From Candidatus Omnitrophota bacterium (GTDB taxonomy: Bacteria; Omnitrophota; Gorgyraeia; Gygaellales; Profunditerraquicolaceae): a stretch of DNA of 64,000 nucleotides. The DNA is taken from positions 311,218-375,217 of the forward strand of contig QZKH01000003.1 in the NCBI GenBank assembly GCA_003598025.1, read 5' to 3'. Position 1 is the first letter of the stretch; each line of letters opens with the position of its first letter. Below the pieces are notes generated by a model that was not told the DNA's origin, did no database searches, and saw nothing but the letters and a program-made list of their open reading frames with translations. Shown here piece by piece: positions 1-58,050 of the stretch. The position numbers were made by a program, and so were the translations under genes.

Positions 1-404
1 GAAACAATATTTATTATCTTGCCTGAATTTTGTTTCTTCATTTGAAGGAATACTTTCTGCAATAAGATGAACGGCGCCTTCAGATCCAAGGCAATAATAT
101 CATCAAATTCTTCTTCAGTTATGTTTTCAAACTTGCTTTGTAAAAAATATGCGGCATTATTTACAAAAACATCTATCCTGCCAAACTTATCTACTGTCCC
201 TTCAATAAAAGCAGTCATATCACTCCTTTTACTTAAGTCGACTCTCATGCAAAATGCTGAATTAAATTCCTCAAGTTTATCAAGCCTGTTCTTCGCGCTC
301 AACGATAACAGGGCACCCTGGGCCTGAAACGCATTTGCGATAGCATAGCCTATGCCCCTGCTTGCACCAGTGATAAGTACGACTTTGCCTTCAAAAGAGC
401 TCAT
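1..404 (-). CDS. SDR-family short-chain dehydrogenase/reductase (5' portion; gene continues beyond window start)
   Basis: Minus-strand translation from the ATG at 404-402 gives MSSFEGKVVLITGASRGIGYAIANAF...VFVNNAAY. These are the classical SDR TGxxxGIG and NNAG motifs. The stop of the upstream gene overlaps as TAATG. Confidence 0.7.
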   Translation of the reverse strand, partial: MSSFEGKVVLITGASRGIGYAIANAFQAQGALLSLSAKNRLDKLEEFNSAFCMRVDLSKRSDMTAFIEGTVDKFGRIDVFVNNAAYFLQSKFENITEEEFDDIIALDLKAPFILLQKVFLQMKKQNSGKIINIV

Positions 405-1492
405 TATCGGATTTTGCCCATTGTTTGTTTAAGCTTTTTCTCAAAATTTTTGATCTTTTTCATATCTGTTAACACCGGTTCTACATCCATACCTCTAACC
501 CAGACTAATCCCGGTTTTAACGGATTTATTTTTCTTTTAAGCTTCGGAAGCTTTTCTGAAAATGCCGTCTTTACAAAAATATAAGGCATATTTAATCCTG
601 CCTCGGTAAAAAACTGATGTGTAGTAAAGAAGCGCCCGATATTAATCTCCGTAGGGTTAGCAATTCCATCCTTGTCATATGTGAAATCTACGCCGTAAAT
701 ACCGTTTGGCTTATCGTCAACAGCAAAAATAGACTTTTGGGCCAGCTTATCTATATTCTTATCTCTTACTGTCAAGCCTGTTCCTGTAATCCCGGTTACC
801 CCCGAAACACTCCTGTTGGCAAATTCCCAGTAAAGCCTTTTTCTGCTCTGAGCGACTATGAGCGAGCCGTCCTTCCAGATTGAAAGCCATGTTATACTGT
901 CCGGGCTGAGATACTCCGCAACTGTAAATTGGCCCCAGCCTTTATAATAATCTATCCAATTAACGGCAAAGTTGAAATCCTCTGTCGGCAGCGACCACTT
1001 CCCGAAAGCCCCGGATATAGCCCTGACCCAGACCTTGCCTTTGATTTTAGTAAATGCCTCCTCCAGGTCTTTTCTGTCATTTATCAGGAACGTCTTTGGG
1101 ACTTTCAAGCCTGCTTCCTGCCATTTTTGAGCCGAAAGAAATTTATCCTGGCAGATTTCAATTACATTATGGCGCGGCAAAAAAGTTTTTACTCCTAACT
1201 GGCTGCGGTGCTTAGAAACTTCAAATACTTCTTCGTCATTTTGCGCGTGCATAAAATCAGGGTTTGTTTCTTTTATAATCCTCTTAAGCACGCCTAAATA
1301 AGGTTTTTGTTTTGCCGCCGGCACTAAAAAAACTTTATCGCAATATTTTTCAGCTTTGCACAGGTCAAACTTGTTGCAAGTAAGCCCTATAATATGGAAT
1401 TTTTCCCTAGCCGCCCTTAGAGACCGGATAAAATTAAGCGAAGGAGTTCCTCCTGAGCCTCCGACAATTATTTTTTTATTCTTCATCTCCAA
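404..1492 (-). CDS. ATP-grasp domain protein (candidate amide ligase acting on an amino sugar or nucleotide sugar)
   Basis: 362 aa. It has an N-terminal Rossmann-like KKIIVGGSGG and a C-terminal E-I-N-x-G-R motif (PTEINIGRFF) typical of the ATP-grasp catalytic loop. It sits in the sugar operon. Confidence 0.55.
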   Translation of the reverse strand: MEMKNKKIIVGGSGGTPSLNFIRSLRAAREKFHIIGLTCNKFDLCKAEKYCDKVFLVPAAKQKPYLGVLKRIIKETNPDFMHAQNDEEVFEVSKHRSQLGVKTFLPRHNVIEICQDKFLSAQKWQEAGLKVPKTFLINDRKDLEEAFTKIKGKVWVRAISGAFGKWSLPTEDFNFAVNWIDYYKGWGQFTVAEYLSPDSITWLSIWKDGSLIVAQSRKRLYWEFANRSVSGVTGITGTGLTVRDKNIDKLAQKSIFAVDDKPNGIYGVDFTYDKDGIANPTEINIGRFFTTHQFFTEAGLNMPYIFVKTAFSEKLPKLKRKINPLKPGLVWVRGMDVEPVLTDMKKIKNFEKKLKQTMGKIR

Positions 1493-2472
1493 TAATACTC
1501 CTTGTTTCTTTTATAATACTCGATTGTCCTGGCTATCCCGTCTTCCAGGCTGACTTTAGGGCTCCAACCTATACATTTATTTATTTTAGTGATATCAGCG
1601 TAATAGTCCCCGGGCTCTATCTCCTTGCGTTCTGGGGTAAATTCGGTAAAACCGACCCTTCCGCTCCCTGCTACTTTGACAATTAACCGCGCCAGTTCTA
1701 TAAAATTAGTGGGTTTACCGCTGCCTACGTTAAACACATTTGAATAAGCTTTTTCTTCCGAAGCTATACGTATCATCGCATCAACCAGGTCATCAATAAA
1801 GAGGAAATCCCTTAAAATCTTTCCGTCACCGAAAACCGGTATCTCCTCATTATCAATAGCCTTACGAATAAACCAATTCAAGACTCCATACTCATCATGA
1901 GCCATTTGGTGCCTGGGGCCGTATGTATTAGTTATCCTGAGAGCTATCGAGCGTATTTTATGGATCTGGTCATAAACCGTAACCAGGTTTTCAGCACAGA
2001 GATTTGTAATCGCATATACACCTCTGGGGTTCATAGGATGGCCTTCATCAACCGGTAAACGTACGCTGTTACCATACTGTCCGCGCGTGCCAGAGAATAA
2101 TATCTTAGCATCTTTATTATATTTACGGCAGGCCTCCAGGATTACCAACGTACCTTCAACATTGATGCTTAAGTCCTGCAGCGGGTTTCTTATGCTATCA
2201 ACGTGGCTTACCTGCCCGGCAAGATGAAAAATCAACTCTTTATCCTTTACAATATTATTTACAGAAAGCTCATCACGGATATCGGACTGGATTATTTCAA
2301 CATCATTTTTTATTGATTCGACATTGAATAAATTGCCTCCTTGTCGTTTAAGCATATTATCAAGTATAGTAAGGCGTGCACCTTGTTTTACCAAAGCAAT
2401 AGCAAGATTGCTTCCTATAAAACCGAGCCCTCCGGTAACAAGTATTTTCTTGTTCTTAAAATCTATGCTCAT
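1483..2472 (-). CDS. NAD-dependent epimerase/dehydratase, CDP-paratose/tyvelose 2-epimerase-like extended SDR
   Basis: 329 aa with VTGGLGFIGSNL, HLAGQVSHVDSIRNP, a YxxxK region and GPRHQ. It is a paralog of the 33810..34805 product. Confidence 0.75.
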   Translation of the reverse strand: MSIDFKNKKILVTGGLGFIGSNLAIALVKQGARLTILDNMLKRQGGNLFNVESIKNDVEIIQSDIRDELSVNNIVKDKELIFHLAGQVSHVDSIRNPLQDLSINVEGTLVILEACRKYNKDAKILFSGTRGQYGNSVRLPVDEGHPMNPRGVYAITNLCAENLVTVYDQIHKIRSIALRITNTYGPRHQMAHDEYGVLNWFIRKAIDNEEIPVFGDGKILRDFLFIDDLVDAMIRIASEEKAYSNVFNVGSGKPTNFIELARLIVKVAGSGRVGFTEFTPERKEIEPGDYYADITKINKCIGWSPKVSLEDGIARTIEYYKRNKEYYWR

Positions 2473-2744
2473 TTATTCTTTCCTCTAAAAAAGATAAAAA
2501 GCGCCAGCAATATCAAAAGGCTAAGAAGAGTTACGCTATTAGCTACTATGATTATATAATTTCTAAGGTGCAGCCCGTAAATCAGCCAGAGGGAAACACC
2601 AGCGGTAAATTGCACAAGCGTTACTACGCTTAAATCATTTACAGACTTGCTTCTGGATATTTTCAATATCTGCGGGACAAAAGAAAACATAGTTAAAGTT
2701 GCTGCCACTGAACCAATAACCTTCCACACTAACCCACTCTCCAT
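2469..2744 (-). CDS. SemiSWEET / PQ-loop sugar transporter (3-TM)
   Basis: 91 aa. FSFVPQILKISRSKSVNDLS...GVSLWLIYGL aligns closely with bacterial SemiSWEETs (PQ motif, identical LWLIYGL). There is a 4-nt overlap with the upstream gene. Confidence 0.8.
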   Translation of the reverse strand: MESGLVWKVIGSVAATLTMFSFVPQILKISRSKSVNDLSVVTLVQFTAGVSLWLIYGLHLRNYIIIVANSVTLLSLLILLALFIFFRGKNK

Positions 2745-2748
2745 ATTA

Positions 2749-3741
2749 TTAAATAGCGCCTTTCGCTGTCCTTTTTAAATCTTCGGCAACCATCATTTTT
2801 ACCAGCTCATCGAATTTAACCTTTGGCTTCCACTTAAGGACCCTTCTGGCTTTGGCGTAATCTCCTTTTAGATGCCTTACTTCGGCAGGGCGATAAAATT
2901 TCTTGTCAATAACAACATATTTCTTCCAGTTAAGCCCGGCATATCTAAAAGCAAGATCCACAAATTCCTTTACAGAATGCGTCTGGTTAGTCGCTATAAC
3001 GTAATCATCCGGCTTTCTTTGCTGGAGCATAAGCCACATCGCAGCGACATAGTCACCTGCAAATCCCCAATCCCTTTTTGCATCGAGGTTGCCGAGATAG
3101 AGCTTATCCTGAAGCCCAAATTTAATCCTGGCTACCCCATTGGTTATCTTCCTGGTTACGAACTCAAAACCTCGCCTCGGGGATTCATGGTTAAAAAGCA
3201 TGCCGTTACATGCAAATATCCCATAGGCCTCCCTATAATTCCTGGTAAGCTCAAAACCAGCGACTTTAGAGATCCCATACGCTGACCTTGGATGAAATGG
3301 AGTACGCTCATTTTGAGGAGAATGCGGAGCCAGGCCGAACATTTCGCTTGAAGCGGCAAAATAAAACTTTGCCGATGGAGTTGCTTCCTTAATCGCTGAG
3401 AGCACAAAATGGGTGCCGTTTACATTTGTATTAATCGTAGAAAACTCGTCCTCAAATGAATAGCTTACAAAACTCTGGGCCGCTAAATGGTAACATTCAT
3501 GTGGCCTGACCTCATGCACTACCTTATAAATACTGGGATAACTCTCAAGCGATGCTGAATACAAATGTATTCTGTTGAGTATATGCTTAATCCTCCAAAG
3601 ATGGTGTTCAGGATCCTCTAACGCTACCCTTCGCACTATTCCGTAGACTTCATAATTCTTTTCCAGCAAGAATTCAGATAGATAAGAACCATCCTGGCCA
3701 TCAATCCCTGTAATAAGCGCTCTTTTCATATAATCATGCAC
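2749..3741 (-). CDS. gmd: GDP-mannose 4,6-dehydratase
   Basis: 330 aa. ALITGIDGQDGSYLSEFLLEKNYEVYGIVRR is the hallmark GMD N-terminus. The S/YxxxK triad region and length fit. Confidence 0.9.
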   Translation of the reverse strand: MHDYMKRALITGIDGQDGSYLSEFLLEKNYEVYGIVRRVALEDPEHHLWRIKHILNRIHLYSASLESYPSIYKVVHEVRPHECYHLAAQSFVSYSFEDEFSTINTNVNGTHFVLSAIKEATPSAKFYFAASSEMFGLAPHSPQNERTPFHPRSAYGISKVAGFELTRNYREAYGIFACNGMLFNHESPRRGFEFVTRKITNGVARIKFGLQDKLYLGNLDAKRDWGFAGDYVAAMWLMLQQRKPDDYVIATNQTHSVKEFVDLAFRYAGLNWKKYVVIDKKFYRPAEVRHLKGDYAKARRVLKWKPKVKFDELVKMMVAEDLKRTAKGAI

Positions 3742-3746
3742 AACGG

Positions 3747-4772
3747 CTAAGCCTGATACACCCTTTTCCAGTAACTCCTCAAATTAACAACTCTTTTCTT
3801 AAGCCATGGATAATTATCTTTATACCACCTGATAACACTGAACAACCCCTTTTCAAAATCAACATCCGGCCTCCACCCAAGGCTATTCATAATCTTTCTA
3901 CTGTCTAGGCTGTAGCGTAAATCATGTCCGGGCCTGTCTTTAACAAATTTAATCAGGGATTCCGGCTTAGATAGGGCCTTCAGAATTAATTTAGCGACAT
4001 CGATATTCTTTTTTTCTTCTCCTGAGCCAATATTATAGACCTGTCCGATTTTCCCTCTTTCTGCTACCCGTATGATCCCATTTACACAATCATTGACATA
4101 AAGCCATTCGCGTACGTTAGAGCCGTCAGCATATACCGGGACAGCTTCATTTCTCAAAGCCTTATAAATAACGACAGGTATGAATTTCTCAGGGAATTGC
4201 CACGGTCCATAATTATTTGAAGGCCTGACAATAACTGCCGCAAGTCCGTACGTTCTAACATAAGACTGGATCAACAGGTCTGCTGCGGCCTTGCTTGCCG
4301 AATACGGCGAATTAGGCACTAACGGGTCGGTTTCCTTGAAGCTCCCCTTTTCTATTTCCCCGTAAACTTCATCAGTAGAGACGTGGATTAATTTTTCGAC
4401 GCTAAATTTCCTGCAACATTCAAGAAGGACATGCACACCGATCAAATTAGCCCGCATGAATAGAGATGCGTCAATAATGCTTCTATCTACATGGCTCTCA
4501 GCTGCAAAATTAACGACAATTGAAGGTTTTAGCTTCATGAATATATTCTCAATCCTCAATTTGTCGGAAATATCGGCCTTGTAAAAATTATACCTTCCCT
4601 TAACCGGATCAAGCCTGGATAGATCAGCAGCATATGTCAGTTTATCAACGACGTTAATCCGCATATTGCTAAAACATGTTTTTTTACCTTCTTTATCTTG
4701 GCCTTTAATCGTTCTGAGAAATTCACTGCCAATAAAACCTGCTGCTCCCGTTATCAGGATATTCTTACTCAT
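3747..4772 (-). CDS. rfbB: dTDP-glucose 4,6-dehydratase
   Basis: ILITGAAGFIGS, VSTDEVYG, YSASKAA and RPSNNYGP are present. The start is placed at the internal Met (MSKNIL), which gives an ATGA overlap with the rmlD stop. The longer ORF extends to 4805. Confidence 0.88.
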   Translation of the reverse strand: MSKNILITGAAGFIGSEFLRTIKGQDKEGKKTCFSNMRINVVDKLTYAADLSRLDPVKGRYNFYKADISDKLRIENIFMKLKPSIVVNFAAESHVDRSIIDASLFMRANLIGVHVLLECCRKFSVEKLIHVSTDEVYGEIEKGSFKETDPLVPNSPYSASKAAADLLIQSYVRTYGLAAVIVRPSNNYGPWQFPEKFIPVVIYKALRNEAVPVYADGSNVREWLYVNDCVNGIIRVAERGKIGQVYNIGSGEEKKNIDVAKLILKALSKPESLIKFVKDRPGHDLRYSLDSRKIMNSLGWRPDVDFEKGLFSVIRWYKDNYPWLKKRVVNLRSYWKRVYQA

Positions 4773-5593
4773 TTTCTCAAACTCTCCATATATCCTACTA
4801 CACACTCTCTTATAACTTCCTTTATATTTCTCATTTTGAATCCGCTCTTCTCAAGCTTATCTGTAGAAAGCACCAGATTCGTCCTCTTAAGACCTAAACT
4901 CCTGTAATCAATGGTCTCATAACTGAAATCAGGATTGAACAACCTGTATTCTTCCATTAACTCGGCATAATCGAGGGCGCCCTTATTAACAACATTAAAT
5001 ATCCCGCTGGCATCAACGTTTATAAGATATTTTACAGCTTTTATAAAATCAGGGATATAAGTTACAGAATTGGGCAAGTTAATGACCTTCTTATACTTTA
5101 TCAATTTGTCAATGAGGTTCTTTGAAGAAGCACGGTTATCAAGCGGAACCCTGGGCCTTAATATCAGCACCTTAAATTTGCCGGACAATAATTTCAAGGC
5201 TTGTTCCGAATAAATTTTTGAACGGCTGTAAAACAAATCAAAGTAATCCGGCTCCCTTGCCTCCGTAATCGGCCTGTCCTTAAGATAATCGTAATTATAA
5301 ATACAGCCTGAACTTATATGCACTAATTTTACCCCGTTCCTTATTGCTGCTTCGGCCAGGATTATGGGGACAAATACATTGGCGATTAATGTTTTATCCG
5401 GATCGACTTCGCAATAATCCACATTTTTGCCGATATGTGCAATACAATTTACCAATACTTTTGGTTTATATTTCTTTATAAGGCGCTCTGCATCGGCAAG
5501 ATTATGGATTTTAGCTGAAGAAATTTCACACTTCAATTCTTCGGCCAGTCTTCCCCCAATATAGCCATTACCTAATATCAATGTTTTTTTCAT
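4769..5593 (-). CDS. rfbD: dTDP-4-dehydrorhamnose reductase family protein
   Basis: 274 aa with the RmlD substrate-binding fold: LILGNGYIGGRL, HISSGCIY and YSRSK (YxxxK). It lies between rmlA and rmlB. Confidence 0.7.
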   Translation of the reverse strand: MKKTLILGNGYIGGRLAEELKCEISSAKIHNLADAERLIKKYKPKVLVNCIAHIGKNVDYCEVDPDKTLIANVFVPIILAEAAIRNGVKLVHISSGCIYNYDYLKDRPITEAREPDYFDLFYSRSKIYSEQALKLLSGKFKVLILRPRVPLDNRASSKNLIDKLIKYKKVINLPNSVTYIPDFIKAVKYLINVDASGIFNVVNKGALDYAELMEEYRLFNPDFSYETIDYRSLGLKRTNLVLSTDKLEKSGFKMRNIKEVIRECVVGYMESLRK

Positions 5594-6452
5594 CTTTTAT
5601 CAGTTTTTTAAGATATCCTCCATAGCTGGTCTTTATTTTATCAGCCAGAGATTTTAACTGCTCCTTATTAATGTAACCCATCCTATACGAAACCTCTTCT
5701 ATACATCCGATCTTTAAACCCTGCCTCTCTTCGACAGTCTTGATAAACAGGGAAGCATCAATGAGGGAATCATAAGTCCCTGTATCCAGCCATGCATAGC
5801 CTCTGCCGAGGATCTTGAGCCTTAATTTGCCTTTTTTTATATAGGCCTTGTTTATATCACTTATTTCTAGTTCTCCTCTTTTGGAAGGTTTAAGGCGCCT
5901 GGCAATTTTAGGCGCTTCGTTGTCATAAAAATATATTCCGCATACAGCCCAGTTAGTCCGGGGTTTCTTCGGTTTCTCTTCTATGGAAATTACGCGGTGC
6001 TCCTTATCAAACTCTATCACCCCGTATCTTGAGGGGTCATTTACGTAGTAGCCGAAAATATAAGCACCGTCATCAAGTGAGGCTGCTTCTTGAACCAACT
6101 CAACCAGCTTATCCCCGTAAAAGATATTATCACCGAGTATGAGGCAGACGCTGTCATTGCCGATAAAATTTTCAGCAATAATCAGACTCTGGGCTATCCC
6201 TAGCGGTTTTTTCTGTATGGCATAAGTAATATTCAAGCCCAGGTCTTTGCCGTTACCAAGAAAATCCCTGAATCTGGGGGTATCTTTAGGAGTGGATATG
6301 ATCAAAATATCCTTAATACCTGCCAGCATTAACACAGACAACGGATAATAAAACATGGGTTTATCGTATATAGGAAGCATCTGTTTGCATATGCCCTTGG
6401 TTATAGGATAAAGCCTGGTCCCGGAACCGCCTGCTAAAATTATCCCCTTCAT
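5568..6452 (-). CDS. rfbA: glucose-1-phosphate thymidylyltransferase
   Basis: MKGIILAGGSGTRLYPIT...YDKPM...LGDNIFYG is the classical RmlA sequence. 294 aa. Confidence 0.9.
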   Translation of the reverse strand: MKGIILAGGSGTRLYPITKGICKQMLPIYDKPMFYYPLSVLMLAGIKDILIISTPKDTPRFRDFLGNGKDLGLNITYAIQKKPLGIAQSLIIAENFIGNDSVCLILGDNIFYGDKLVELVQEAASLDDGAYIFGYYVNDPSRYGVIEFDKEHRVISIEEKPKKPRTNWAVCGIYFYDNEAPKIARRLKPSKRGELEISDINKAYIKKGKLRLKILGRGYAWLDTGTYDSLIDASLFIKTVEERQGLKIGCIEEVSYRMGYINKEQLKSLADKIKTSYGGYLKKLIKDEKNIDIR

Positions 6453-7741
6453 TTGGTCCTCCTTGAAACTTCGCCTTTAGGCAATAAACTGGTTGCAATC
6501 CCCATTAACAGCCAGAAATAAGCAGAATTATTCACTCCCACGGTGATAATAGTTGTAGAAAGAGCAAATATAAGAATAGCGGCAATAACAGTTGTCAACC
6601 CAGCCAATATATTATCGTCAATCCCGGCTGGCTCAAAAGCAGAAGGCCTTCTTATATTTGCTATTGAAAGTCTAAAAAAAGTTATAAATATAAAAATAAA
6701 AGCCCCCAAACCAAGTGTTCCCATCTCTGCAGCCATCTCAAAATATGTGCTATGAGCATGCAGGCTCAATCCAGAAGAAACCGGATAGTCCGCTGGAAGC
6801 ATATATTTACTGCTAGCAGGGACAATCTTCTCAAACATGCCTATACCGGCACCAAATAACGGATAATCCTTAAATATTGACATTGCTAAATTGTATAGCG
6901 GAAGCCTGAATGACCATTCGCTTGGGAAAGGTATGGTTATTATCCTTTGCCTTATGGGCTGCGAATACAGGCTGAATGAAAATATAAAAACCAGCAAAAG
7001 GACTATACCAACCAATAAATGAACGGATTTTTTATTCTTCCTGATTATATATACAAAAATAAAACTGGCTATTATTGATATCCAGGCAGCACGCGTAGCA
7101 TTCCATGCCAAACACAGCAGTAAAAATATTAATATTAAAAATGAGAATGTTCTGATTTTTTTATTACGCGAATAACAAAAAAAAGTAAAAACAAAAGGCG
7201 CAAAATACGCCAGATAAAGCGGGAAACCGTAAAAAGGAATCCACCAACCCCAATAAACAGACCAGAGCCTCTCATACGGAGACTTAACCAGCACCAGGTA
7301 CCTCAAGTAGTCAAATACGCCGCCGAAAGAAAATACTAAGCCCGAGATAAAAAAAGCTCCGGTTAAGATATACAGGTTTTTTCTTGACCTGCCTGCCAGC
7401 CCCAGGCCGAGCCAGAAATAAACCGCATACAAAAGGTAACGGTTAAAAAATATCTTCTGGCTGTGATACGGATCCATGCTCAACAAAATGGAAAAAATAC
7501 AAGCAACAGAAAATAGCGATATCGGTTTATTTAACGGATTTAACGGAATTAATTTACGATAAAAATATTTTTTGTTCTCTAGTAAAATGATAAAAAACCA
7601 GAAAAAGGGAACAAACCAATAAGTTATTTTTCCGACCTCTTTATATCCGTAAGGCGAAAAAATCAAAAAAACGGAAAAAATCAGCAGCATCAATGTTTCT
7701 AAAACTGCACTGATTCTTTTTGAAAATGCCTCATTCATCAA
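6449..7741 (-). CDS. O-antigen ligase / Wzy_C family polytopic membrane protein
   Basis: 430 aa and highly hydrophobic. A periplasmic-loop HAHSTYFEMAAEMG motif resembles the Wzy_C/WaaL signature. Confidence 0.6.
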   Translation of the reverse strand: MMNEAFSKRISAVLETLMLLIFSVFLIFSPYGYKEVGKITYWFVPFFWFFIILLENKKYFYRKLIPLNPLNKPISLFSVACIFSILLSMDPYHSQKIFFNRYLLYAVYFWLGLGLAGRSRKNLYILTGAFFISGLVFSFGGVFDYLRYLVLVKSPYERLWSVYWGWWIPFYGFPLYLAYFAPFVFTFFCYSRNKKIRTFSFLILIFLLLCLAWNATRAAWISIIASFIFVYIIRKNKKSVHLLVGIVLLLVFIFSFSLYSQPIRQRIITIPFPSEWSFRLPLYNLAMSIFKDYPLFGAGIGMFEKIVPASSKYMLPADYPVSSGLSLHAHSTYFEMAAEMGTLGLGAFIFIFITFFRLSIANIRRPSAFEPAGIDDNILAGLTTVIAAILIFALSTTIITVGVNNSAYFWLLMGIATSLLPKGEVSRRTK

Positions 7742-9530
7742 GGATGCCCTTCACTCTTCTGTATAAAACCTGGCAATCTTCGCAGATTTTAATGATCTCT
7801 GATAAACTCTCAATATCAATCTTTGAAATCGCTATTATAACTTCATGAATATTGTTTGTCTTTATAATTTCTGCCATTTTCCTGCGCGTGCCCAGCACGG
7901 ATACGCCATGAATTCTATTGCCGATCTTACTACTTGAATCATCAATAAATCCTATAGGCACAAAATTGAGAGATTTATTCCTTTTTATTTCCCTGATAAC
8001 CATCTCCCCGATATCGCCGGCGCCAAAAATAAGTATCCTTTTGCCTTTATCCTGTATTCTGCTAAAAAACTCCCCTATAATCCTGAATAAAAAGCGCGAA
8101 CCAGTAATCAAAAGCAGCAAAAGAAGCCAGTCAATAAAGAATACAGCCCTGGAATAGTCACGGAACCTGAAAACAAAGGTAACAAATAAAACGGAGACGA
8201 CGGAAGACAAGCTCACAACTTTAAAAATAGTAAGAAAGTCTGCGATACTGATATATCTCCACACTCCGCGGTATAAACCAAAAATAAAGAAAACGAGTAA
8301 TTTCAGGAGTATGATCCACGGGAGGGATTCCTTGATCAAATAAAGACTGGAAGATAATAGCTCTGTCCCCTCAAAACGCAGATAATAAGCAGAATAATAT
8401 GCTACGCAAATAAGCAAGAAATCAAGACTTACTTCGGATATCCTCCGTTTATGCATCAGGAACGTATTGATGAATGTAAAATCCTGGGCAGATCCCTTTG
8501 TTACGGTATAGGCCTTATTTTGTCTGCCAAAGAATGTAGCATCAAAAAGGTAAACTCCCAGGTATATAAGTATAATAGCTCCGAGAAAAGCAAAAATTGC
8601 AGTGACTAAAGGATTTACTTTTGAATAAAGAAGCGAGATAAGGCCGAAAATAATGCTGACGAAGTAAAGAAGGACTACTGTCTTTTTTGGAGAGAGACCA
8701 AGCGCAACTAAATGATGCGAAGTATGGTCCTTGCCCCCTTCAAAAACTTTCTTACCCTGGATTTTTCTGACTATCATCACAAAAACAGTGTCAAATATCG
8801 GGACGCTTAATATAAGGACTGGCACGGAAAGCGTTATGAGTACTCCAGATATATGGTGCATTGTTCCGGCAACAGAAATCACTGCCAAAGAATACCCAAG
8901 AAACATACTCCCGGAATCGCCCATAAATATCTTTGCGGGATTAAAATTGTAAGGCAAGAAACCCAGGCAGGACCCGAAGATTATCAGCCCAATAATCCCA
9001 AGAGGGTTATTTTGATATATGTGCCCTGAAAAGAATAACATCAAGCCGACAATCGCAGCAATACCTGCTGCCAACCCGTCTATATTATCAAGAAGGTTGA
9101 AAGAATTCGTTACGGCAATAATCCAAAATATAGTCAGGGGTATGGCAAACACATCATTTACGGGTAAACCCAATATTATCCCGAATAAAACAGCGATACA
9201 GGAAGCTACAACCTGCATAAACAATTTTATATAGGGGGTCAGCCTCAAATGATCATCAATAATACCAACAATAAATAAGAAAAATCCACCTAAATATAAT
9301 CCGAAAGTTCTGTTATTGACAAGCCCGAATAATAAAGAAACTATAAGGAAAGACAGGTAAATCCCTACCCCGCCAAGCAGCGCTGTAGGATTCTTGTGCC
9401 AGCGGTCTGAACGAGGCTGTGAAATTATCCCCTTCTTTAACGCTATGGCCCTGATGACAGGCGTCAAGACAAGTGAAAAAATAAAAGGAATACCGCTTAG
9501 AAGCAGATAACGCAGAATATCGCTATTCAT
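7731..9530 (-). CDS. WecA/MraY-family polyprenyl-phosphate N-acetylhexosamine-1-phosphate transferase fused to a WbaP-type N-terminal TM + Rossmann-like domain
   Basis: The N-terminal ~390 aa carry IIDDHL and NSFNLLDNIDGLAAG (PNPT/WecA motifs). The C-terminal ~200 aa have four TM helices followed by RILIFGAGDIGEMVIREIKRNKSLNFVPIGFIDDSSSKIGNRIHGVSVLGT. This is characteristic of the non-catalytic N-terminal half of WbaP/PglC-type sugar transferases. Confidence 0.75.
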   Translation of the reverse strand: MNSDILRYLLLSGIPFIFSLVLTPVIRAIALKKGIISQPRSDRWHKNPTALLGGVGIYLSFLIVSLLFGLVNNRTFGLYLGGFFLFIVGIIDDHLRLTPYIKLFMQVVASCIAVLFGIILGLPVNDVFAIPLTIFWIIAVTNSFNLLDNIDGLAAGIAAIVGLMLFFSGHIYQNNPLGIIGLIIFGSCLGFLPYNFNPAKIFMGDSGSMFLGYSLAVISVAGTMHHISGVLITLSVPVLILSVPIFDTVFVMIVRKIQGKKVFEGGKDHTSHHLVALGLSPKKTVVLLYFVSIIFGLISLLYSKVNPLVTAIFAFLGAIILIYLGVYLFDATFFGRQNKAYTVTKGSAQDFTFINTFLMHKRRISEVSLDFLLICVAYYSAYYLRFEGTELLSSSLYLIKESLPWIILLKLLVFFIFGLYRGVWRYISIADFLTIFKVVSLSSVVSVLFVTFVFRFRDYSRAVFFIDWLLLLLLITGSRFLFRIIGEFFSRIQDKGKRILIFGAGDIGEMVIREIKRNKSLNFVPIGFIDDSSSKIGNRIHGVSVLGTRRKMAEIIKTNNIHEVIIAISKIDIESLSEIIKICEDCQVLYRRVKGILDE

Positions 9531-9729
9531 TAGTTTTCAGGTAGTTATTAAGATATTTTGCCAATGAAACTCCTCGGAATAAAGCACGGGGTTTCTTGGA
9601 ACGAAATACTGAGCGCACACTCCATCCGTACCTTGAAAGGTGCGTTTTTGTGGCCGCAAACGAATAAATTTAGAATATTATTTTAACATAAAAAGGCCAA
9701 AAAAAATACATTTTTTTGGGTGGAAGGAT

Positions 9730-10932
9730 CTATGATTTAAGGCCTAAAATCCTCAAATACAGGGTCTCAACATCGCCTAACAGGCGCTCTTTATTAAATC
9801 GTTCAAAAACATATTTGCGGGCAGATGCAATAATAATCTGGCGTAAATTGTCTTGGCGCAGGATAAACTCTATGGCTGATGCCAGGACCTCGGGGCTTGA
9901 TTCCGGCCTGATTAACAACCCCCTTTCCATGACTCTAAAACCATTGCAAGATAAACTCGCTTGGCCGGATAAAGGTCCTCCCAATAAATCACCCACCCCC
10001 CCAACATCTGTTGCGATAACTGCCCTGCCTGATGCCATCGCTTCAATCAAAGAAACAGGCGTACCCTCATTTATTGATGTCAAAACAACCAGGTCTAACT
10101 CTTTATAAATGATACTGAGATCTTCCTGCCAGCCAAGAAAATCAACAAATCTGGATATATCTAGCTGCTCTGCGAGCCTTAAAAGCTGCTCCTTAGACTG
10201 GCCGTCACCAACAATTTTAAACCTTAACTTGTCATTGGATTTAAGTAATACTGCTGCGGCATTAAGGAAAAGCGGATGGTTCTTTATAGGAACCAGCCTG
10301 CCAATTATCCCTATCCTGGGACTAACGCCAGCCTCTTTAGCCTGTATATCAAGAAATCTATCCAACTCGAACCCTAAAGGTATAATTTCTATTTTGCTTC
10401 TATTGCCTATGCCCAGCTCCAGCAGTTCTGCCTTTAAACTTGGGCTTAGGGTGATTATTTTATCCGAAACAGAAGCAAGGATTTTCTCAATCTGGACAAA
10501 TACTTTTGTTACAAAATTACTGAAATACCCGTTAAAGACATGCCCGTGAAAAGTATGGACCATTAATGCCGGCTTTCTATAAAAACGGGCACAATTATAG
10601 ATTACCCCTGCTAGCCTGCCTAATGTGCCAGCCTTAGCAGTATGAGTATGTATTATATCCGGCCTTTCCTTAAAAACGATCCTGATTATTTTTAAAAGAG
10701 CAAAAATATCCCTGATTACGCTGATCTGGCGGGATAACTCTGGCACAAAATACGAACCTTGCCCCTTATCCTCATAACCGGATATCTGAGCCTCACCGTT
10801 TTCAAGGCCGCCATAAACAAGCAAAGATGTAAATTGTTCTTTATTGAGGTATTTTGTCAATAATAAAACGTGTATTGCCGGCCCGCCTATATTCAACCTG
10901 GCAATGATCCTGAGCACTTTTACTTTTTTCAT
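9730..10932 (-). CDS. GT4-family (GT-B) glycosyltransferase
   Basis: 400 aa. The C-terminal EGTPVSLIEAMASGRAVIATDVGG E-x7-E motif is present, along with an N-terminal GT4 domain. Confidence 0.8.
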   Translation of the reverse strand: MKKVKVLRIIARLNIGGPAIHVLLLTKYLNKEQFTSLLVYGGLENGEAQISGYEDKGQGSYFVPELSRQISVIRDIFALLKIIRIVFKERPDIIHTHTAKAGTLGRLAGVIYNCARFYRKPALMVHTFHGHVFNGYFSNFVTKVFVQIEKILASVSDKIITLSPSLKAELLELGIGNRSKIEIIPLGFELDRFLDIQAKEAGVSPRIGIIGRLVPIKNHPLFLNAAAVLLKSNDKLRFKIVGDGQSKEQLLRLAEQLDISRFVDFLGWQEDLSIIYKELDLVVLTSINEGTPVSLIEAMASGRAVIATDVGGVGDLLGGPLSGQASLSCNGFRVMERGLLIRPESSPEVLASAIEFILRQDNLRQIIIASARKYVFERFNKERLLGDVETLYLRILGLKS

Positions 10933-11929: not shown

Positions 11930-11986
11930 TTATTCCTTTCTGGCTTAGTTTACGCTTATTTGATATTCCATTTTATAATGAATCTG

Positions 11987-13093
11987 TTAATTTTCAACAA
12001 TTTTTACTAATTCTTTACAAATATATTTTACTTGGGACGTCCCCATCTCGGGGTATATAGGAAGGGAAAATACCTCTCTGGATATTTTCTCAGCTGCGGG
12101 GAAATCCCCTCTTTTATACCCAAGCCCCTTATATACTTTTTGCAAATGTATAGGAATAGGATAATGAATAAGTGTATCTACGCCTGCATCTTTTAGGCCC
12201 TGCATGATCTTGTGCCTATCCTTAGACCTTACAGCATAAATATGGTAAACATGTTCTGCCCCATCTATAACTCTGGGGACCACTAAACCTCTGACCCCAT
12301 CAAGCCTTTCGTTGTAAATTTGTGCATATTCCTGCCTTTTTCTGTTCCATTGCTGGAGCCTGGTAAGTTTTACCCTTAATATGGCTGCCTGAATAGTATC
12401 TAAACGGGAATTGTACCCAAGGCTTACGTTTTCATAACGGTTTTTTCTTCCGTATGCCCTAAGCTTCAGCAGTTTGCTATAAATATCCGGCTTGTCGGTT
12501 ATAATCATACCTGCATCTCCAAAAGCGCCAAGGTTCTTGGTAGGATAAAAACTAAAACAACCTATATCCCCGAATGTCCCGGTCATCCGGGTATTCAATC
12601 TGGCTCCGTGGGATTGCGCGCAGTCTTCTATAACATTCAAACCATACTTATCTGCTATTTTGGTTATATCCGGCATCTTAACAGGCTGGCCATAAAGATG
12701 CACCGGCAATATCGCCTTTGTCCTTTTACTAATGGCCGCTTTTATTTTATCAAGATTAATATTGTAACTATCGATGTCCGCATCAACTAATACCGGTTTT
12801 GCCTGGGTATACGTAACAGCAAGGGCTGAAGCAATATAGGTATTTGCCGGCACAATCACTTCATCCCCCTTGCCAACCCCCAGGCTCAATAATCCTAAGA
12901 ACAAAGCATCAGTACCTGAGTTTACTCCCACCCCAAATTTAGAACCGCAAAATTCTGCAAACTCTTTTTCAAATAACCCTACATTATCACCCAGGATAAA
13001 AGAGTCATTCTCCAATACTCTGGATATAGCCGTATCTATCTCATTTTTTAAATCATGGTACTGCCTTCTAAAATCGGCAAAAGGAACTTTCAT
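11987..13093 (-). CDS. DegT/DnrJ/EryC1/StrS-family PLP-dependent sugar aminotransferase
   Basis: 368 aa. SFYPTKNLGAFGDAG carries the PLP-binding Lys. The family fold and length fit. Confidence 0.9.
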   Translation of the reverse strand: MKVPFADFRRQYHDLKNEIDTAISRVLENDSFILGDNVGLFEKEFAEFCGSKFGVGVNSGTDALFLGLLSLGVGKGDEVIVPANTYIASALAVTYTQAKPVLVDADIDSYNINLDKIKAAISKRTKAILPVHLYGQPVKMPDITKIADKYGLNVIEDCAQSHGARLNTRMTGTFGDIGCFSFYPTKNLGAFGDAGMIITDKPDIYSKLLKLRAYGRKNRYENVSLGYNSRLDTIQAAILRVKLTRLQQWNRKRQEYAQIYNERLDGVRGLVVPRVIDGAEHVYHIYAVRSKDRHKIMQGLKDAGVDTLIHYPIPIHLQKVYKGLGYKRGDFPAAEKISREVFSLPIYPEMGTSQVKYICKELVKIVEN

Positions 13094-17059: not shown

Positions 17060-18469
17060 CTATCGGTTCCTCTTAAAAATATTGAGAACAGCCGTCTTTG
17101 ACATATTAAGAAACTCCAAAACCAGCATCTTTGCCTCAAACACCGTCTTTAGTTTTGTTATCCTGTCAAATATGTATTCTGGCCTCAAATAGAACCTCCT
17201 GAAGGCAATATCCCTTAATTCTCTCAATCTCTGATAGGGTATACTGCCGGTCTCAATTACGGGGCTAAAAGAACCGTCGAAACTGCCGTCATCTGAGTTG
17301 AGCCAGTCATTCTCCAGACATTCTTTACGCAATTCTGTCCCAACTATGGGAATGGCAAAATTAAACGAAGCATAATCACATCTAAGCTTGATTGCAAAAT
17401 CAATTGTATTTATAATATCTTCTTCGCTTTCACCGGGTATTCCTATAATAAAATATCCTATAGTCTTTATACCATGCTTATGAGCTAACCTGAAAGCCTG
17501 CTCTATGGTCTCAATCTTCATATTTTTTGAATAACGGTCCAATATCATCTGGTTTGCAGATTCTACTCCGATATGTATAGCATGGCAACCTGCGCGCTTC
17601 ATGGAAACCATGCGTTCCTCATCTATTGAATCAGCCCTCATATCACATACCCATCCGAGCTTTATCTTATTTTCTATGATATTCTGGCAAAGCGCCAAAG
17701 CGTGTTTCTTTACGCTTCCAAATGAAACATCCCTGAAAAAAACTTCCCTTATCCCTAATTTCTCTACATACCTTAATTCATCGGTTATGTTATCCACATC
17801 TCTCATAATATACGGTATATTGGAAGAAACACAGAAAGCGCATTTACCTACACACCCATAGCTTGATATCACGCTGGTCAGCGGGATCCTCCTCCCATGG
17901 CTCAGCCTGTATTTGGAAAAGTCAAGCTGTTCATGCCTTGGGACAGGATAACTAAAATAACCTGTAGAATACTTTGTCTTCCCGCAAATTACCACGTCAT
18001 TCTTCCTGACAGCTAAATTGTTTAATTCTGACGTATCATTTTTCAGAAATCCTAATATGTCATCGCTGGTAAAATTTAATAATACTGCGTCCAAAAAAAC
18101 ATTATCCTGCATCTCCTGAACAGGGTTATTCCGCAAAAATCCGCCTTCCCCGATTATAAGCATGTCTCTAAATGAATTCTTTACTTTATAGGCAAATCCC
18201 AAGTCGTTACACTTGCTTGACGACCCGGCCATAAATATTAAAGCATACGGAGCGGCCTTTTTAATAATCTCCATCGTTTGATCGTTAGTAAGCCTTAACG
18301 CATTGGCGTCAATTATACTAATGTCAAATTCTTTAGAAAGTATCCCGCTTAGGACAAGAAGGTCAACCTGAGGCCAGCAATATAGCCCTTTTGAAACTGT
18401 GCTACTATACATATCGCGCATGTTTAAAGTAGGTGCCGGAGGATTCAATAAGACTATTTTTTCTTTCAT
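17060..18469 (-). CDS. B12-binding radical SAM enzyme (class B)
   Basis: 469 aa. There is an N-terminal cobalamin-binding-like domain, then the SYGCVGKCAFC CxxxCxxC cluster and a radical SAM core. Confidence 0.85.
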   Translation of the reverse strand: MKEKIVLLNPPAPTLNMRDMYSSTVSKGLYCWPQVDLLVLSGILSKEFDISIIDANALRLTNDQTMEIIKKAAPYALIFMAGSSSKCNDLGFAYKVKNSFRDMLIIGEGGFLRNNPVQEMQDNVFLDAVLLNFTSDDILGFLKNDTSELNNLAVRKNDVVICGKTKYSTGYFSYPVPRHEQLDFSKYRLSHGRRIPLTSVISSYGCVGKCAFCVSSNIPYIMRDVDNITDELRYVEKLGIREVFFRDVSFGSVKKHALALCQNIIENKIKLGWVCDMRADSIDEERMVSMKRAGCHAIHIGVESANQMILDRYSKNMKIETIEQAFRLAHKHGIKTIGYFIIGIPGESEEDIINTIDFAIKLRCDYASFNFAIPIVGTELRKECLENDWLNSDDGSFDGSFSPVIETGSIPYQRLRELRDIAFRRFYLRPEYIFDRITKLKTVFEAKMLVLEFLNMSKTAVLNIFKRNR

Positions 18470-29023: not shown

Positions 29024-30259
29024 TCAGTTATTTAGTATTGTATTATAAATATGGCTGTAACTTTCTATCCCGTTAACCAGAGATAAATTCGTTACAGCAA
29101 CATTACGGCATCTGTTCTTTAAGCCAGCATCATTGATTAAATACTGCAACTCTTCCGCTGCCCTTCTGTACTCTGCAGAAGAGAATTCTTTTAGCACACT
29201 ACCGATTTTATTTTCTTCTATTAAGCCGGCTGTATCTCCTATGCCGGAATTAATCACCACAGGCAATCCGCAGGCAAGGTATTCTCCGAATTTTGTCGGG
29301 CAAGATGCCAGCTTTGAAAATACCGGTTTAATAAACATAATTGCAGCATCTGCCCATGATAAATATGCCGGCATCTCATAATGCTTCTTGGAAAGGACAG
29401 TAAAATCAGTGTCTTTAATAAATCCGTCATGCATAGAGTTTATAACTAAATCGCGCTCAAAAGGGGTAATTATCAAAAAATGGGCCTTAGGGTCAACAGA
29501 CTTTAGTACTTTAAAGAACTCGATCATCTCTCTGAGCATATACCATGTTCCGATCGAGCCGCAATATACCATCACGGATTTACCTTCGGGAGGAAAATCC
29601 TCAGGCCTTCGATTACGGGTTTGCCTGTTAAAATTGTCTAAGTCAACGCAACAGGGAATTACCTTTATTTTTGGGGCATGTTTTTTGTTAACGAATATCC
29701 CTGACTTCAATATATCTGCCATTTTATTAGTTAAGACGACTGTATAGTCAGAGCCAAAAAGGAATTTTGCATCAAGATAGTTTACCGCCTTAAACATTAT
29801 TTTTGTAATCAAACTTTCTTTGGGCCACATCCCTCCGTCCACATAATCATAGGCTAATACGCCTCTTCTGTCATAGATGAATTTACACCCGCACAGGCGC
29901 GCGCACAGCCAGCCTATCAGAGATGAAACCTCTGCCCTGGCGTGAACTACCCTGATCCTGTTCTTCTTTACAATAAACACTGCATAAATCAAACCGAAGA
30001 TGCAATCAAGCAGAGTCGAAATCATCTGCGGCTTTTTATGATAAACTAGCCTCTTCCAAAATATCCCTGCGTTCCTTAACCGCTCTTCCATTAGCCGCAA
30101 ATGATCCTTATCTCTTAATAAAGCTTTCTTTTCAAAAGAAAGCAGGAAAAAACGCAATTTATCCTTAGACAAGCCTTTTAGATAAGGGATGACCTGCGAT
30201 TGAGCGATAGGCTCAAGCATGCCATCATAGCTGATATAGAGTATATTATTATCCGGCAT
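29024..30259 (-). CDS. GT4-family glycosyltransferase
   Basis: 411 aa with a GT-B architecture. KFGEYLACGLPVVINSGIGD is the C-terminal motif. Confidence 0.7.
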   Translation of the reverse strand: MPDNNILYISYDGMLEPIAQSQVIPYLKGLSKDKLRFFLLSFEKKALLRDKDHLRLMEERLRNAGIFWKRLVYHKKPQMISTLLDCIFGLIYAVFIVKKNRIRVVHARAEVSSLIGWLCARLCGCKFIYDRRGVLAYDYVDGGMWPKESLITKIMFKAVNYLDAKFLFGSDYTVVLTNKMADILKSGIFVNKKHAPKIKVIPCCVDLDNFNRQTRNRRPEDFPPEGKSVMVYCGSIGTWYMLREMIEFFKVLKSVDPKAHFLIITPFERDLVINSMHDGFIKDTDFTVLSKKHYEMPAYLSWADAAIMFIKPVFSKLASCPTKFGEYLACGLPVVINSGIGDTAGLIEENKIGSVLKEFSSAEYRRAAEELQYLINDAGLKNRCRNVAVTNLSLVNGIESYSHIYNTILNN

Positions 30260-35524: not shown

Positions 35525-35632
35525 TCCTTTTTATGCGTTGGCGGCCACAAAATCGCACCTTCGAAGATGCTGATGGAGCTCGGCCTTTCAGTATTTAGCT
35601 CCAAGAAACCTCTGGCTAAAGCCCGAGAAGCT

Positions 35633-41996: not shown

Positions 41997-42009
41997 TATT
42001 TTCCTTTCT

Positions 42010-55821: not shown

Positions 55822-55839
55822 ATTTTTGTCTCCTTGTAT

Positions 55840-58021: not shown

Positions 58022-58050
58022 ATTATACTGTAGGCGGTTACATTTGACTA
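58022..58050 (-). promoter_or_regulatory. putative sigma70-like promoter for the MarR-phosphonate operon
   Basis: On the minus strand: TAGTCA (-35-like, 4/6), an 18-nt spacer, then TATAAT (perfect -10). This lies in the 94-bp gap upstream of the regulator. Confidence 0.3.

Follow-up and report, generated by a model that had tools for sequence, protein, structure and literature searches.

Gene content and layout of the SemiSWEET operon

The window (the whole stretch of DNA analysed, 64,000 nucleotides in length) belongs to an Omnitrophota genome and takes in a surface-glycan island of 64 kb that lies downstream of tyrS. Within this island we found a run of minus-strand genes, followed as far as position 404, in the order rmlA, RmlD-like, rmlB, gmd, SemiSWEET, SDR and ATP-grasp (Table 1). 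The SemiSWEET gene lies about 61 kb from tyrS, between gmd and a gene for an SDR-type epimerase/dehydratase, just as stated in the initial annotation. That annotation also described the operon as rml/gmd. The rmlA and rmlB assignments are solid, but no rmlC-type Pfam family was present among the window ORFs scanned, and the RmlD-like gene is divergent, scoring far below the TIGR01214 cut-off. The location of this RmlD-like gene between rmlA and rmlB is kept across the clade (39 loci). Matching of gmd to TIGR01472 gives 402.8 bits, slightly under the cut-off of 415, and all the NCBIfam matches of the SDR protein are below cut-off. The ATP-grasp-like gene overlaps the 3' end of the SDR gene.

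Table 1. Genes and other features of the window relevant to the SemiSWEET locus
Feature	Position	Strand	Details
ATP-grasp-like protein, 362 aa	404..1492	(-)	Carbamoyl-phosphate-synthase-like and RimK-family matches, all below cut-off
SDR-family NAD-dependent epimerase/dehydratase, 329 aa	1483..2472	(-)	Pfam Epimerase and GDP_Man_Dehyd; directly downstream of SemiSWEET
ATGA overlap (SemiSWEET TGA / downstream SDR ATG)	2469..2472	(-)	4 nt; layout typical of translational coupling
SemiSWEET gene	2469..2744	(-)	Start codon ATG at 2744 (91 aa) or GTG at 2729 (86 aa)
GDP-mannose 4,6-dehydratase (gmd), 330 aa	2749..3741	(-)	GDP_Man_Dehyd, 398 bits; directly upstream of SemiSWEET
dTDP-glucose 4,6-dehydratase (rmlB)	3747..4805	(-)	TIGR01181, 412 bits (cut-off 365.1)
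Divergent RmlD-like SDR, 274 aa	4769..5593	(-)	RmlD_sub_bind, 52 bits; TIGR01214, 55.4 bits (cut-off 224.05)
Glucose-1-phosphate thymidylyltransferase (rmlA)	5568..6452	(-)	TIGR01207, 464.6 bits (cut-off 360.65)
LPG_synthase_TM protein, candidate flippase	35633-36673		Beside GT2 of the GT-C module
Phosphonate genes (PEP-mutase module)	52246-55821		About 50 kb from SemiSWEET
ORF of 118 aa, soluble-looking	57597-57953		In an intergenic gap

The SemiSWEET gene is embedded in the operon as an integral and probably co-transcribed part. A gap of 4 nt separates it from the gmd stop codon, and its own stop codon shares four nucleotides with the start of the SDR gene, an overlap that had been recorded in the initial annotation. 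The SemiSWEET and SDR genes are likely to be translationally coupled. A scan of positions 1-10000 for promoters and terminators returned counts no different from shuffled expectation (27 versus 27.2 and 12 versus 9.3, respectively) and is therefore uninformative on transcription units. The GC content of the gene (0.38) is in line with that of its neighbors (0.37-0.43), and recent foreign insertion was rejected on this basis. Neither a sugar kinase nor a salvage pyrophosphorylase gene adjoins the SemiSWEET gene; thus, the route from a free sugar to the sugar-1-phosphate is not encoded locally.

Family assignment, structure and comparison with known proteins

The ORF encodes a protein of 91 residues (MESGLVWKVIGSVAATLTMFSFVPQILKISRSKSVNDLSVVTLVQFTAGVSLWLIYGLHLRNYIIIVANSVTLLSLLILLALFIFFRGKNK). 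Its start codon is ambiguous, as the NCBI annotation gives an 86-residue product beginning with GTG at V6, where most of the homologs also start. The protein matches both the PQ-loop (42.3 bits, cut-off 22) and MtN3_slv (40.2 bits, cut-off 23.7) families above their curated cut-offs. Since these two are its only Pfam matches at E<=0.01, membership in the GtrA family was rejected. The match to NCBIfam SemiSWEET_2 is a marginal pass (80.9 bits versus the cut-off of 80). In a sequence search against PDB the best matches were all SemiSWEETs, with LbSemiSWEET of Leptospira biflexa (4qnc) at the top (E=7e-12). The hydropathy profile has three peaks, and the AlphaFold monomer model (pLDDT 85.8) has helices at residues 3-32, 40-60 and 63-90. 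The distribution of basic residues fits the positive-inside rule for an N-out, C-in topology, as judged from sequence. These results establish family membership and the three-helix topology, so that the earlier identification of the ORF as a 91-residue SemiSWEET with three transmembrane (TM) helices stands. It is a genuine canonical SemiSWEET, an ordinary member of the family, and public records already carry this annotation.

The functional residues of SemiSWEETs are conserved in the protein. TM1 (approximately residues 3-32) bears the hinge residues P24 and Q25, TM2 (approximately 40-60) carries W53 and Y56, and TM3 (approximately 63-90) carries N69. The FVPQILK motif spans residues 22-28. 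The LWLIYGL motif had been assigned to helix 3, but it corresponds to residues 52-58 and thus lies in TM2. Among 76 homologs P24 and Q25 are invariant, W53 and N69 are invariant or nearly so, and conservation exceeding 90% is seen for G11, A14, A15, L17, T18, M19, F20, F22, P24, Q25, W53, Y56, G57 and N69. The structural comparison is consistent with the sequence-based assignment, as the top 19 Foldseek matches in PDB are all SemiSWEETs or SWEETs (probability 0.75-1.0, query-normalised TM-scores 0.47-0.58). Foldseek E-values are weak (best 0.017, RMSD about 6 Å) owing to the small size of the protein and the use of a monomer model; therefore, we relied on the ranking and the probabilities instead.

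LbSemiSWEET, a glucose transporter represented by several structures (4qnc, 5uhq and 5uhs), is about 40% identical to the window protein in an ungapped alignment over 73 residues, belongs to the same length class and likewise has three TM helices. Residues P24, Q25, W53, Y56 and N69 of the window protein correspond to P19, Q20, W48, Y51 and N64 of LbSemiSWEET (an offset of 5), whose numbering was verified using the Q20A and D57A mutant entries (5uhq, 5uhs). The difference concerns the extracellular gate. Y56 is kept, whereas the positions of the Arg/Asp pair (R55 and D57 in LbSemiSWEET) are occupied by L60 and N62. In the 47 homologs linked to NDP-sugar genes, Arg is found at the first of these positions in 26 and Asp at the second in 38. 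Because the Arg/Asp pair is replaced, gating of the window SemiSWEET may differ from that of LbSemiSWEET. In EcSemiSWEET the R57A mutant is still active, its activity being above that of the wild type (PMC4309421). The two proteins also differ in that the window gene resides in an NDP-sugar/glycan operon.

The fold is shared with EcSemiSWEET (4x5n, 4x5m), BjSemiSWEET1 and the SemiSWEET of 9kax, and EcSemiSWEET reaches the top Foldseek TM-scores (0.55-0.58). Going by residue spacing, T18, F22 and F46 of the window protein match T15, F19 and F43 of EcSemiSWEET, the roles of which have been described (PMC4309421). W53 and N69 correspond to W50 and N66, and Y56 also matches the pocket/gate residues of EcSemiSWEET (PMC4309421). 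Transport of sucrose by EcSemiSWEET is very slow and its physiological substrate is unknown (PMC4309421). Over the Foldseek alignments EcSemiSWEET, BjSemiSWEET1 and the SemiSWEET of 9kax show lower identity to the window protein (26-33%), although in the 9kax chain the LWLIYGL stretch of TM2 is identical. All three have been assayed with sucrose and, unlike the window gene, have no reported link to nucleotide-sugar genes.

Small or PQ-loop-containing membrane proteins that take part in glycan assembly offer a further comparison. MPDU1, a eukaryotic 7-TM protein with two PQ-loops, belongs to the same PQ-loop superfamily (PF04193), and both it and the window protein are genetically tied to glycan assembly. 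In contrast to MPDU1, the window protein has three TM helices, its best matches are sugar uniporters and it is accompanied by NDP-sugar enzymes, which are soluble. GtrA and ArnE/ArnF, families with four TM helices that act on polyprenyl-P-sugars, are also small multi-pass membrane proteins found inside surface-glycan clusters, yet they have no sequence relationship to the window SemiSWEET.

Linkage to nucleotide-sugar genes in related genomes

We used an alignment of the 10 closest sequences to seed a search for related loci, which resulted in 74 species-level genome loci, mostly from Omnitrophota. The SemiSWEETs of these loci are 45-64% identical to that of the window. The initial annotation proposed looking for co-occurrence with rml genes in relatives, and this is what we observed: 45 of the 74 loci have rmlA, rmlB, gmd or an SDR gene as a same-strand NDP-sugar neighbor no more than 300 nt from SemiSWEET. 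The linkage spans at least six gene orders; those seen are TyrS–SemiSWEET–RmlA, rSAM–SemiSWEET–RmlA, rSAM–SemiSWEET–GMD, rSAM–SemiSWEET–SDR, RmlB–SemiSWEET, SDR–SemiSWEET–GMD, GMD–SemiSWEET–SDR and SemiSWEET–GMD. Moreover, where an NDP-sugar gene lies downstream of SemiSWEET (36 junctions), the two overlap in 17 cases, 14 of them with the same -4 spacing as in the window. Linkage to NDP-sugar genes is thus the rule in this SemiSWEET clade, whose gene has kept its place beside rmlA, rmlB or gmd despite many rearrangements. However, the 45 linked loci represent far fewer than 45 independent events, because much of the linkage comes from a single inherited gene order (PGM, S1, TyrS, SemiSWEET, rmlA). 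The remaining 29 loci, including all those of Methanothrix, have no adjacent NDP-sugar gene, and five or six of these 29 end within 600 nt downstream of SemiSWEET. SemiSWEETs of other lineages (41-50% identity) were found without NDP-sugar neighbors.

In search of specificity-determining positions, we compared the linked (47) and unlinked (29) homologs. They differ only at two positions (S21/G and L46/F), neither of which is the pocket Trp or Asn. Neofunctionalisation is therefore unsupported, and the genomic context tracks no visible change of specificity.

The view that a biosynthetic context is unusual for a SemiSWEET, as taken initially, is overstated not only because the linkage is the rule in the clade. 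A survey of genomic contexts (Jia et al. 2018, Front Genet, PMC5972207) has reported SemiSWEETs adjoining nucleotide-sugar genes as well as genes for polysaccharides and glycogen. For one Omnitrophica WOR_2 SemiSWEET (A0A0S8IN18) the authors of that survey suggested involvement in nucleotide-sugar metabolism. The association in Omnitrophota has thus been in print once before, and beyond that study we found no SemiSWEET in a glycan or nucleotide-sugar operon in the literature searched. A0A0S8IN18 was a single passing example, whereas here the gene is placed between gmd and SDR, downstream of rmlA/rmlB, and the linkage extends to several gene orders.

Proposed role and alternative explanations

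We consider it somewhat probable that the canonical SemiSWEET encoded in the NDP-sugar operon equilibrates a hexose or 6-deoxyhexose for the synthesis of dTDP-/GDP-6-deoxyhexoses. Such an equilibrating role appears the most likely because the clade stays beside rmlA, rmlB or gmd through so many rearrangements. In this proposal we infer dimerisation, uniport, the substrate and the direction of flux. By analogy with crystallised homologs, two of these three-helix bundles of about 90 residues each would pair as a homodimer within the cytoplasmic membrane and carry a small neutral sugar down-gradient by 'binder-clip' rocking, with the PQ motif of TM1 acting as the hinge and the sugar lodged between the W53 and N69 side chains of both protomers. 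Glucose or mannose, both hexoses, or else a 6-deoxyhexose could be the sugar equilibrated across the membrane, and its precursor uptake, salvage or overflow would thereby be coupled to dTDP-/GDP-6-deoxyhexose synthesis for an envelope glycan. Among the characterised relatives, the Lb protein carries glucose, while the Bj and Ec proteins carry sucrose (PMC4309421, PMC5972207). The physiological role of bacterial SemiSWEETs is unknown according to the context survey (Jia et al. 2018, PMC5972207). From the linkage observed in the clade comes a hypothesis open to testing, in which the transporter would serve the supply, salvage or overflow of sugar for the making of envelope 6-deoxyhexoses, and a defined set of candidate substrates.

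How much the context says about function may be questioned, and we regard it as a modest clue. A rather unlikely alternative is that it is uninformative, the protein being a housekeeping sugar facilitator that inherited synteny has left at the edge of a hypervariable glycan island downstream of tyrS. Near SemiSWEET, tyrS (43 loci) and the S1 gene (36 loci) turn up roughly as often as rmlA (42 loci), and the SemiSWEET contexts reported by Jia et al. 2018 (PMC5972207) are very diverse. In addition, homologs that adjoin DUF2284 or GDT1 genes (those of Methanothrix and of some Omnitrophota) share identical pocket residues. Under rearrangement, however, SemiSWEET moves with the NDP-sugar genes rather than with tyrS; in the window it is still between gmd and SDR in spite of the distance from tyrS. 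A Y1 transposase and a BrnT/BrnA toxin-antitoxin pair separate tyrS from SemiSWEET in about 12 loci, but such elements never occur in the SemiSWEET-rmlA interval. The frequent overlap with downstream NDP-sugar genes also speaks against a fortuitous context. That the ORF might be a functionless chance or degenerate frame, or a recent foreign insertion, can hardly be entertained. Its short length, the narrow NCBIfam score and the ambiguous start codon would fit a chance frame, but this is effectively refuted by conservation, namely by homologs in 74 loci with invariant functional residues; the tight gaps to both neighbors and the confident structure model point the same way.

Alternatively, the Omnitrophota clade might represent a dedicated and hitherto unnoticed component of 6-deoxyhexose glycan synthesis rather than a nutritional importer: either an MPDU1-like translocator of polyprenyl-P-(6-deoxy)hexose or a channel for salvage or export of L-rhamnose/6-deoxyhexose. 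We consider this improbable. If it were true, a physiological role would, under either variant, become known for a prokaryotic SemiSWEET for the first time; in the case of the salvage/export channel, expression would be coupled to rmlA, rmlB and gmd. The translocator taken by itself is more improbable still. The dimer would flip or scramble a polyprenyl-P monosaccharide (e.g. polyprenyl-P-6-deoxyhexose) for a periplasmic GT-C enzyme, replacing GtrA or ArnE/F. The PQ-loop superfamily does include MPDU1, which is needed for the use of dolichol-P-mannose/-glucose by a mechanism that is unknown (PMC9169118, PMC3281891), although MPDU1 itself is not a proven flippase (PMC9169118). The inward-open EcSemiSWEET crystal contains monoolein with its glycerol head in the sugar pocket (PMC4309421), which means that a lipid-anchored polyol can reach the site. 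As for potential partners, an ArnC-like GT2 is encoded in the window together with three GT-C enzymes of the PMT_2 family, a GtrA-family match is absent among the window ORFs scanned with Pfam, and a GT2 gene directly follows SemiSWEET in four loci, though in only these four. The few intergenic gaps, inspected for small ORFs and a GtrA-like membrane gene, contain a single ORF, which is soluble-looking (Table 1). On the other hand, the genes conserved beside SemiSWEET (rmlA, rmlB, gmd) code for soluble NDP-sugar enzymes of the cytoplasm and not for GT2 or GT-C. The GT2/GT-C module of the window is about 32 kb away and has a candidate flippase of its own (LPG_synthase_TM), and three Polysacc_synt (Wzx-like) proteins are encoded in the window as well. 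The hinge and pocket residues typical of soluble-sugar SemiSWEETs are all kept, and in these nothing sets the window protein apart from homologs without the NDP-sugar link. Moreover, it has one PQ-loop stretch in three helices, as opposed to the two PQ-loop repeats of the 7-TM MPDU1.

The initial annotation had put forward two possible roles for the transporter. One of them, movement of a phosphonate-sugar, finds no support and was rejected: the phosphonate genes of the window are distant from SemiSWEET (Table 1) and are absent from the flanks of related, typical SemiSWEET-rmlA loci, and the pocket residues are the same in linked and unlinked homologs. The other suggestion, that a precursor sugar is imported, would fit all of the observations.

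Identity of the SemiSWEET protein and its functional residues

The protein initially annotated as a SemiSWEET-type sugar transporter scores above the cut-offs of the Pfam families PQ-loop (42.3 bits, cut-off 22) and MtN3_slv (40.2 bits, cut-off 23.7) and of NCBIfam SemiSWEET_2 (80.9 bits, cut-off 80). Its top PDB sequence matches are likewise SemiSWEETs: 4qnc (7e-12), followed by 9kax, 4rng and 4x5m. The hydropathy profile contains three hydrophobic segments, and the AlphaFold model derived from 19 sequences (pLDDT 85.8) has three helices (residues 3-32, 40-60 and 63-90). The best 19 Foldseek matches in the PDB were all SemiSWEETs or SWEETs (probability 0.75-1.0, query-normalised TM-scores 0.47-0.58), with weak E-values (0.017 at best) for a query that is a short monomer. 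The initial annotation is thus confirmed by family matches and three-helix topology as well as by the gene junctions described below. Of its two motifs, FVPQILK occupies residues 22-28, while LWLIYGL (residues 52-58) lies in TM2 and not, as stated there, in helix 3. Basic residues in the TM1-TM2 loop (K28, R31, K33) and at the C-terminus (R87, K89, K91) fit an N-out, C-in topology.

Functional positions were mapped through an ungapped HMMER alignment to the crystallised LbSemiSWEET. The resulting numbering (Lb + 5) is confirmed by the mutant entries 5uhq (Q20A) and 5uhs (D57A). The alignment identifies the hinge (P24, Q25), the pocket Trp and Asn (W53, N69) and the gate Tyr (Y56); T18, F22 and F46 correspond by spacing to EcSemiSWEET T15, F19 and F43, whose roles have been described (PMC4309421). 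All of these are invariant or >90% conserved in 76 homologues. The sole deviation from known SemiSWEET residues concerns the extracellular gate, where L60 and N62 replace Arg and Asp. The same HL[KR]N variant is present in P0002-P0004 and hence seems characteristic of a subclade. In EcSemiSWEET the equivalent mutant, R57A, retains activity, above that of wild type (PMC4309421). The pocket is alike in homologues with and without nearby NDP-sugar genes, and therefore gives no sign of new specificity.

Gene junctions and the nucleotide-sugar operon

On the minus strand the genes follow the order rmlA, RmlD-like SDR, rmlB, gmd, SemiSWEET, SDR, ATP-grasp (Table). The gmd stop codon precedes the 91-codon SemiSWEET ORF by 4 nt, and the TGA of the latter overlaps the ATG of the SDR epimerase/dehydratase gene as ATGA. 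Both the 4-nt overlap and the placement between gmd and an epimerase-type gene had been reported correctly. The start codon choice is ambiguous: the NCBI annotation of GCA_020060685.1 (contig JAGUZT010000008.1, the start of which, reversed, equals the window) uses a GTG (V6, position 2729) giving 86 residues, and most homologues begin at this point. GC content of the gene (0.38) is within that of its neighbours (0.37-0.43). Predicted promoter and terminator sites were no commoner than in shuffled sequence, so that the scan is uninformative on transcription units.

The rml/gmd operon proposed initially holds for rmlA, rmlB and gmd; however, the window ORFs scanned gave no match to a Pfam family of the rmlC type, and the RmlD-like SDR is divergent. 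The latter keeps its place between rmlA and rmlB in 39 loci, and in about 30 it is the second gene after SemiSWEET. Its product may act as a non-canonical reductase or combine epimerase and reductase activities; the pathway may accordingly yield a dTDP-sugar other than L-rhamnose made by the classical route. In loci L002 (about 11966-12725), L003, L059 and L062 the RmlD-like gene is separated from rmlB by an inserted gene encoding a zeta-toxin/AAA_33-like kinase of 185 aa; in L044 the kinase gene directly follows the RmlD-like gene and the contig stops short of rmlB. A 71-aa ORF comes after the kinase in all of these except L062.

Features on the minus strand of the window
Feature	Position	Remarks
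rmlA		TIGR01207, 464.6 bits (cut-off 360.65)
RmlD-like SDR	4769-5593	274 aa; rmlD model 55.4 bits (cut-off 224)
rmlB		TIGR01181, 412 bits (cut-off 365.1)
gmd	2749..3741	GDP-mannose 4,6-dehydratase
SemiSWEET	2469..2744	91 aa
SDR	1483..2472	epimerase/dehydratase, 329 aa
ATP-grasp		last in order
Radical-SAM	17060-18469	
Radical-SAM	30249-31706	
Radical-SAM	31722-32828	
GT2	34802-35524	ArnC-like
LPG_synthase_TM	35633-36673	candidate flippase
PMT_2 GT-C	36615-38435	glycosyltransferase
PMT_2 GT-C	38435-39871	glycosyltransferase
CDP-alcohol phosphatidyltransferase	39850-40671	
B12-radical-SAM	40572-41996	in GT2/GT-C module
PMT_2 GT-C	42010-43305	glycosyltransferase
Sulfatase-like	51116-52249	flanks phosphonate module
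Fe-ADH	52246-53424	Fe-alcohol dehydrogenase
TPP-dependent decarboxylase	53387-54514	
PEP mutase-cytidylyltransferase	54508-55821	domain fusion
Type I phosphodiesterase-like	55840-57591	flanks phosphonate module
f7 family	58048-59124	
B12-radical-SAM	59103-60611	tyrS-proximal block
GT2	60608-61573	tyrS-proximal block
GT2	61509-62318	tyrS-proximal block
Wzx-like	62290-63546	beside tyrS
tyrS, 3' part	63559-63987	island limit

Linkage to NDP-sugar genes across genomes

The four close homologues looked up in public assemblies (56-63% identity) all adjoin either rmlA, RmlD-like and rmlB genes or gmd and SDR genes. When 185,579 species-representative genomes were scanned, 74 SemiSWEET loci were recovered, mostly from Omnitrophota, with about 10 from Methanothrix/Methanotrichaceae MAGs and one each from Methanoregula and Thermodesulfobacteriota. 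Of the 74 loci, 45 have a same-strand rmlA, rmlB, RmlD-like, gmd or SDR gene within 300 nt of SemiSWEET. Five or six of the remaining 29 end within 600 nt downstream of the gene. Junctions with the downstream NDP-sugar gene overlap in 17 of 36 cases, 14 of them with a spacing of -4. Control SemiSWEETs from other lineages (41-50% identity) have unrelated neighbours.

The commonest order is PGM, S1, TyrS, SemiSWEET, rmlA, RmlD-like, rmlB, SDR. Part of the linkage signal is owed to inherited gene order, for tyrS and the S1 gene occur in the neighbourhood with roughly the frequency of rmlA. Nevertheless, it is more than inherited synteny, because mobile insertions split only the tyrS side and rearranged loci keep their NDP-sugar partners. 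In about 12 loci tyrS and SemiSWEET are separated by a Y1 (IS200-like) transposase and a BrnT/BrnA toxin-antitoxin pair, neither of which ever separates SemiSWEET from rmlA in the loci surveyed. One or both of these elements recur in the tyrS-SemiSWEET interval (L002, L027, L038, L043, L045, L048, L052-L054, L056, L059, L064, L071, L075), which has the look of a hot spot for insertions where the glycan island begins. Rearranged orders include RmlB|SW, SDR|SW|GMD, GMD|SW|SDR, SW|GMD, and rSAM|SW followed by RmlA, GMD or SDR (SW, SemiSWEET). In the window SemiSWEET is ~61 kb from tyrS, and yet it lies between gmd and the SDR gene.

Archaeal and some Omnitrophota homologues have DUF2284 or GDT1 genes as neighbours instead. 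The archaeal SemiSWEETs, on Methanothrix, Methanotrichaceae and Methanoregula MAG contigs of GC 0.48-0.56 (L021, L028, L029, L040, L046, L047, L063, L067, L072, L073), are 45-57% identical to the Omnitrophota protein, and their gene GC is matched to the contig, suggesting transfer between two domains or mis-binning. DUF2284 is directly upstream in L028, L040, L046 and L047, and adjoining or one gene off in L006 ('Candidatus Undivivens industriae'), L007 and L020 (both titled Omnitrophota).

SemiSWEET gene contexts have been surveyed by Jia et al. 2018 (PMC5972207), and we found nothing further on SemiSWEET in such a context in later literature. The window gene belongs to a known family in a genomic context noted once before, in their Omnitrophica example; what the present analysis contributes is the clade-wide extent of the linkage and its persistence through rearrangement.

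Proposed role and the surrounding glycan island

The evidence is best accounted for by an ordinary SemiSWEET uniporter, with its expression tied to dTDP-/GDP-6-deoxyhexose synthesis. Such a protein would let glucose or mannose, or possibly a 6-deoxyhexose, equilibrate between the two sides of the membrane, which could serve precursor supply, salvage or overflow. The analysis establishes family, topology, conservation of residues, embedding in the operon and linkage; dimerisation, substrate and direction of transport are inferred. The earlier interpretation is supported in part; of its functional ideas, import of a precursor sugar would be compatible with the data, and movement of a phosphonate-sugar has no support. 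We disfavour a translocator of lipid-linked sugar. MPDU1 is a PQ-loop protein, monoolein occupies the EcSemiSWEET pocket (PMC4309421) and the window encodes GT-C enzymes, all in favour of such a function, but the conserved SemiSWEET partners are soluble enzymes and the GT2/GT-C module is 32 kb off with its own candidate flippase.

Every ORF scanned in the 64-kb window is on the minus strand, and together they form a glycan island with a WecA-like GT4, two Wzy_C and three Polysacc_synt (Wzx-like) proteins, many GT1, GT2 and GT4 genes, an AsnB-like protein and several B12-binding radical-SAM enzymes. The module at 34802-43305 looks built for the use of polyprenyl-phosphate sugars, and that at 51116-57591 suggests a phosphonate-decorated glycan. 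Radical-SAM density is unusually high for one glycan cluster (five enzymes, three with a B12-binding domain), suggesting that the sugars are extensively C-methylated or otherwise modified by radical chemistry.

Judged from Pfam domains and protein lengths, without direct sequence comparison, the tyrS-proximal block resembles that directly upstream of SemiSWEET in six other Omnitrophota genomes (L010, L013, L018, L041, L068, L069). In the window, ~55 kb of extra glycan genes lie between this block and the rml, gmd and SemiSWEET genes, and the DNA downstream of tyrS has the appearance of a hypervariable glycan island. A conserved family lacking a Pfam match (f7, ~250-360 aa) is shared by such glycan loci, being present in the window and in 17 loci (e.g. 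L002, 13784-14542); its members carry the motifs 'W.L...N.L.F' and 'FKVQLESP' in repeated form.
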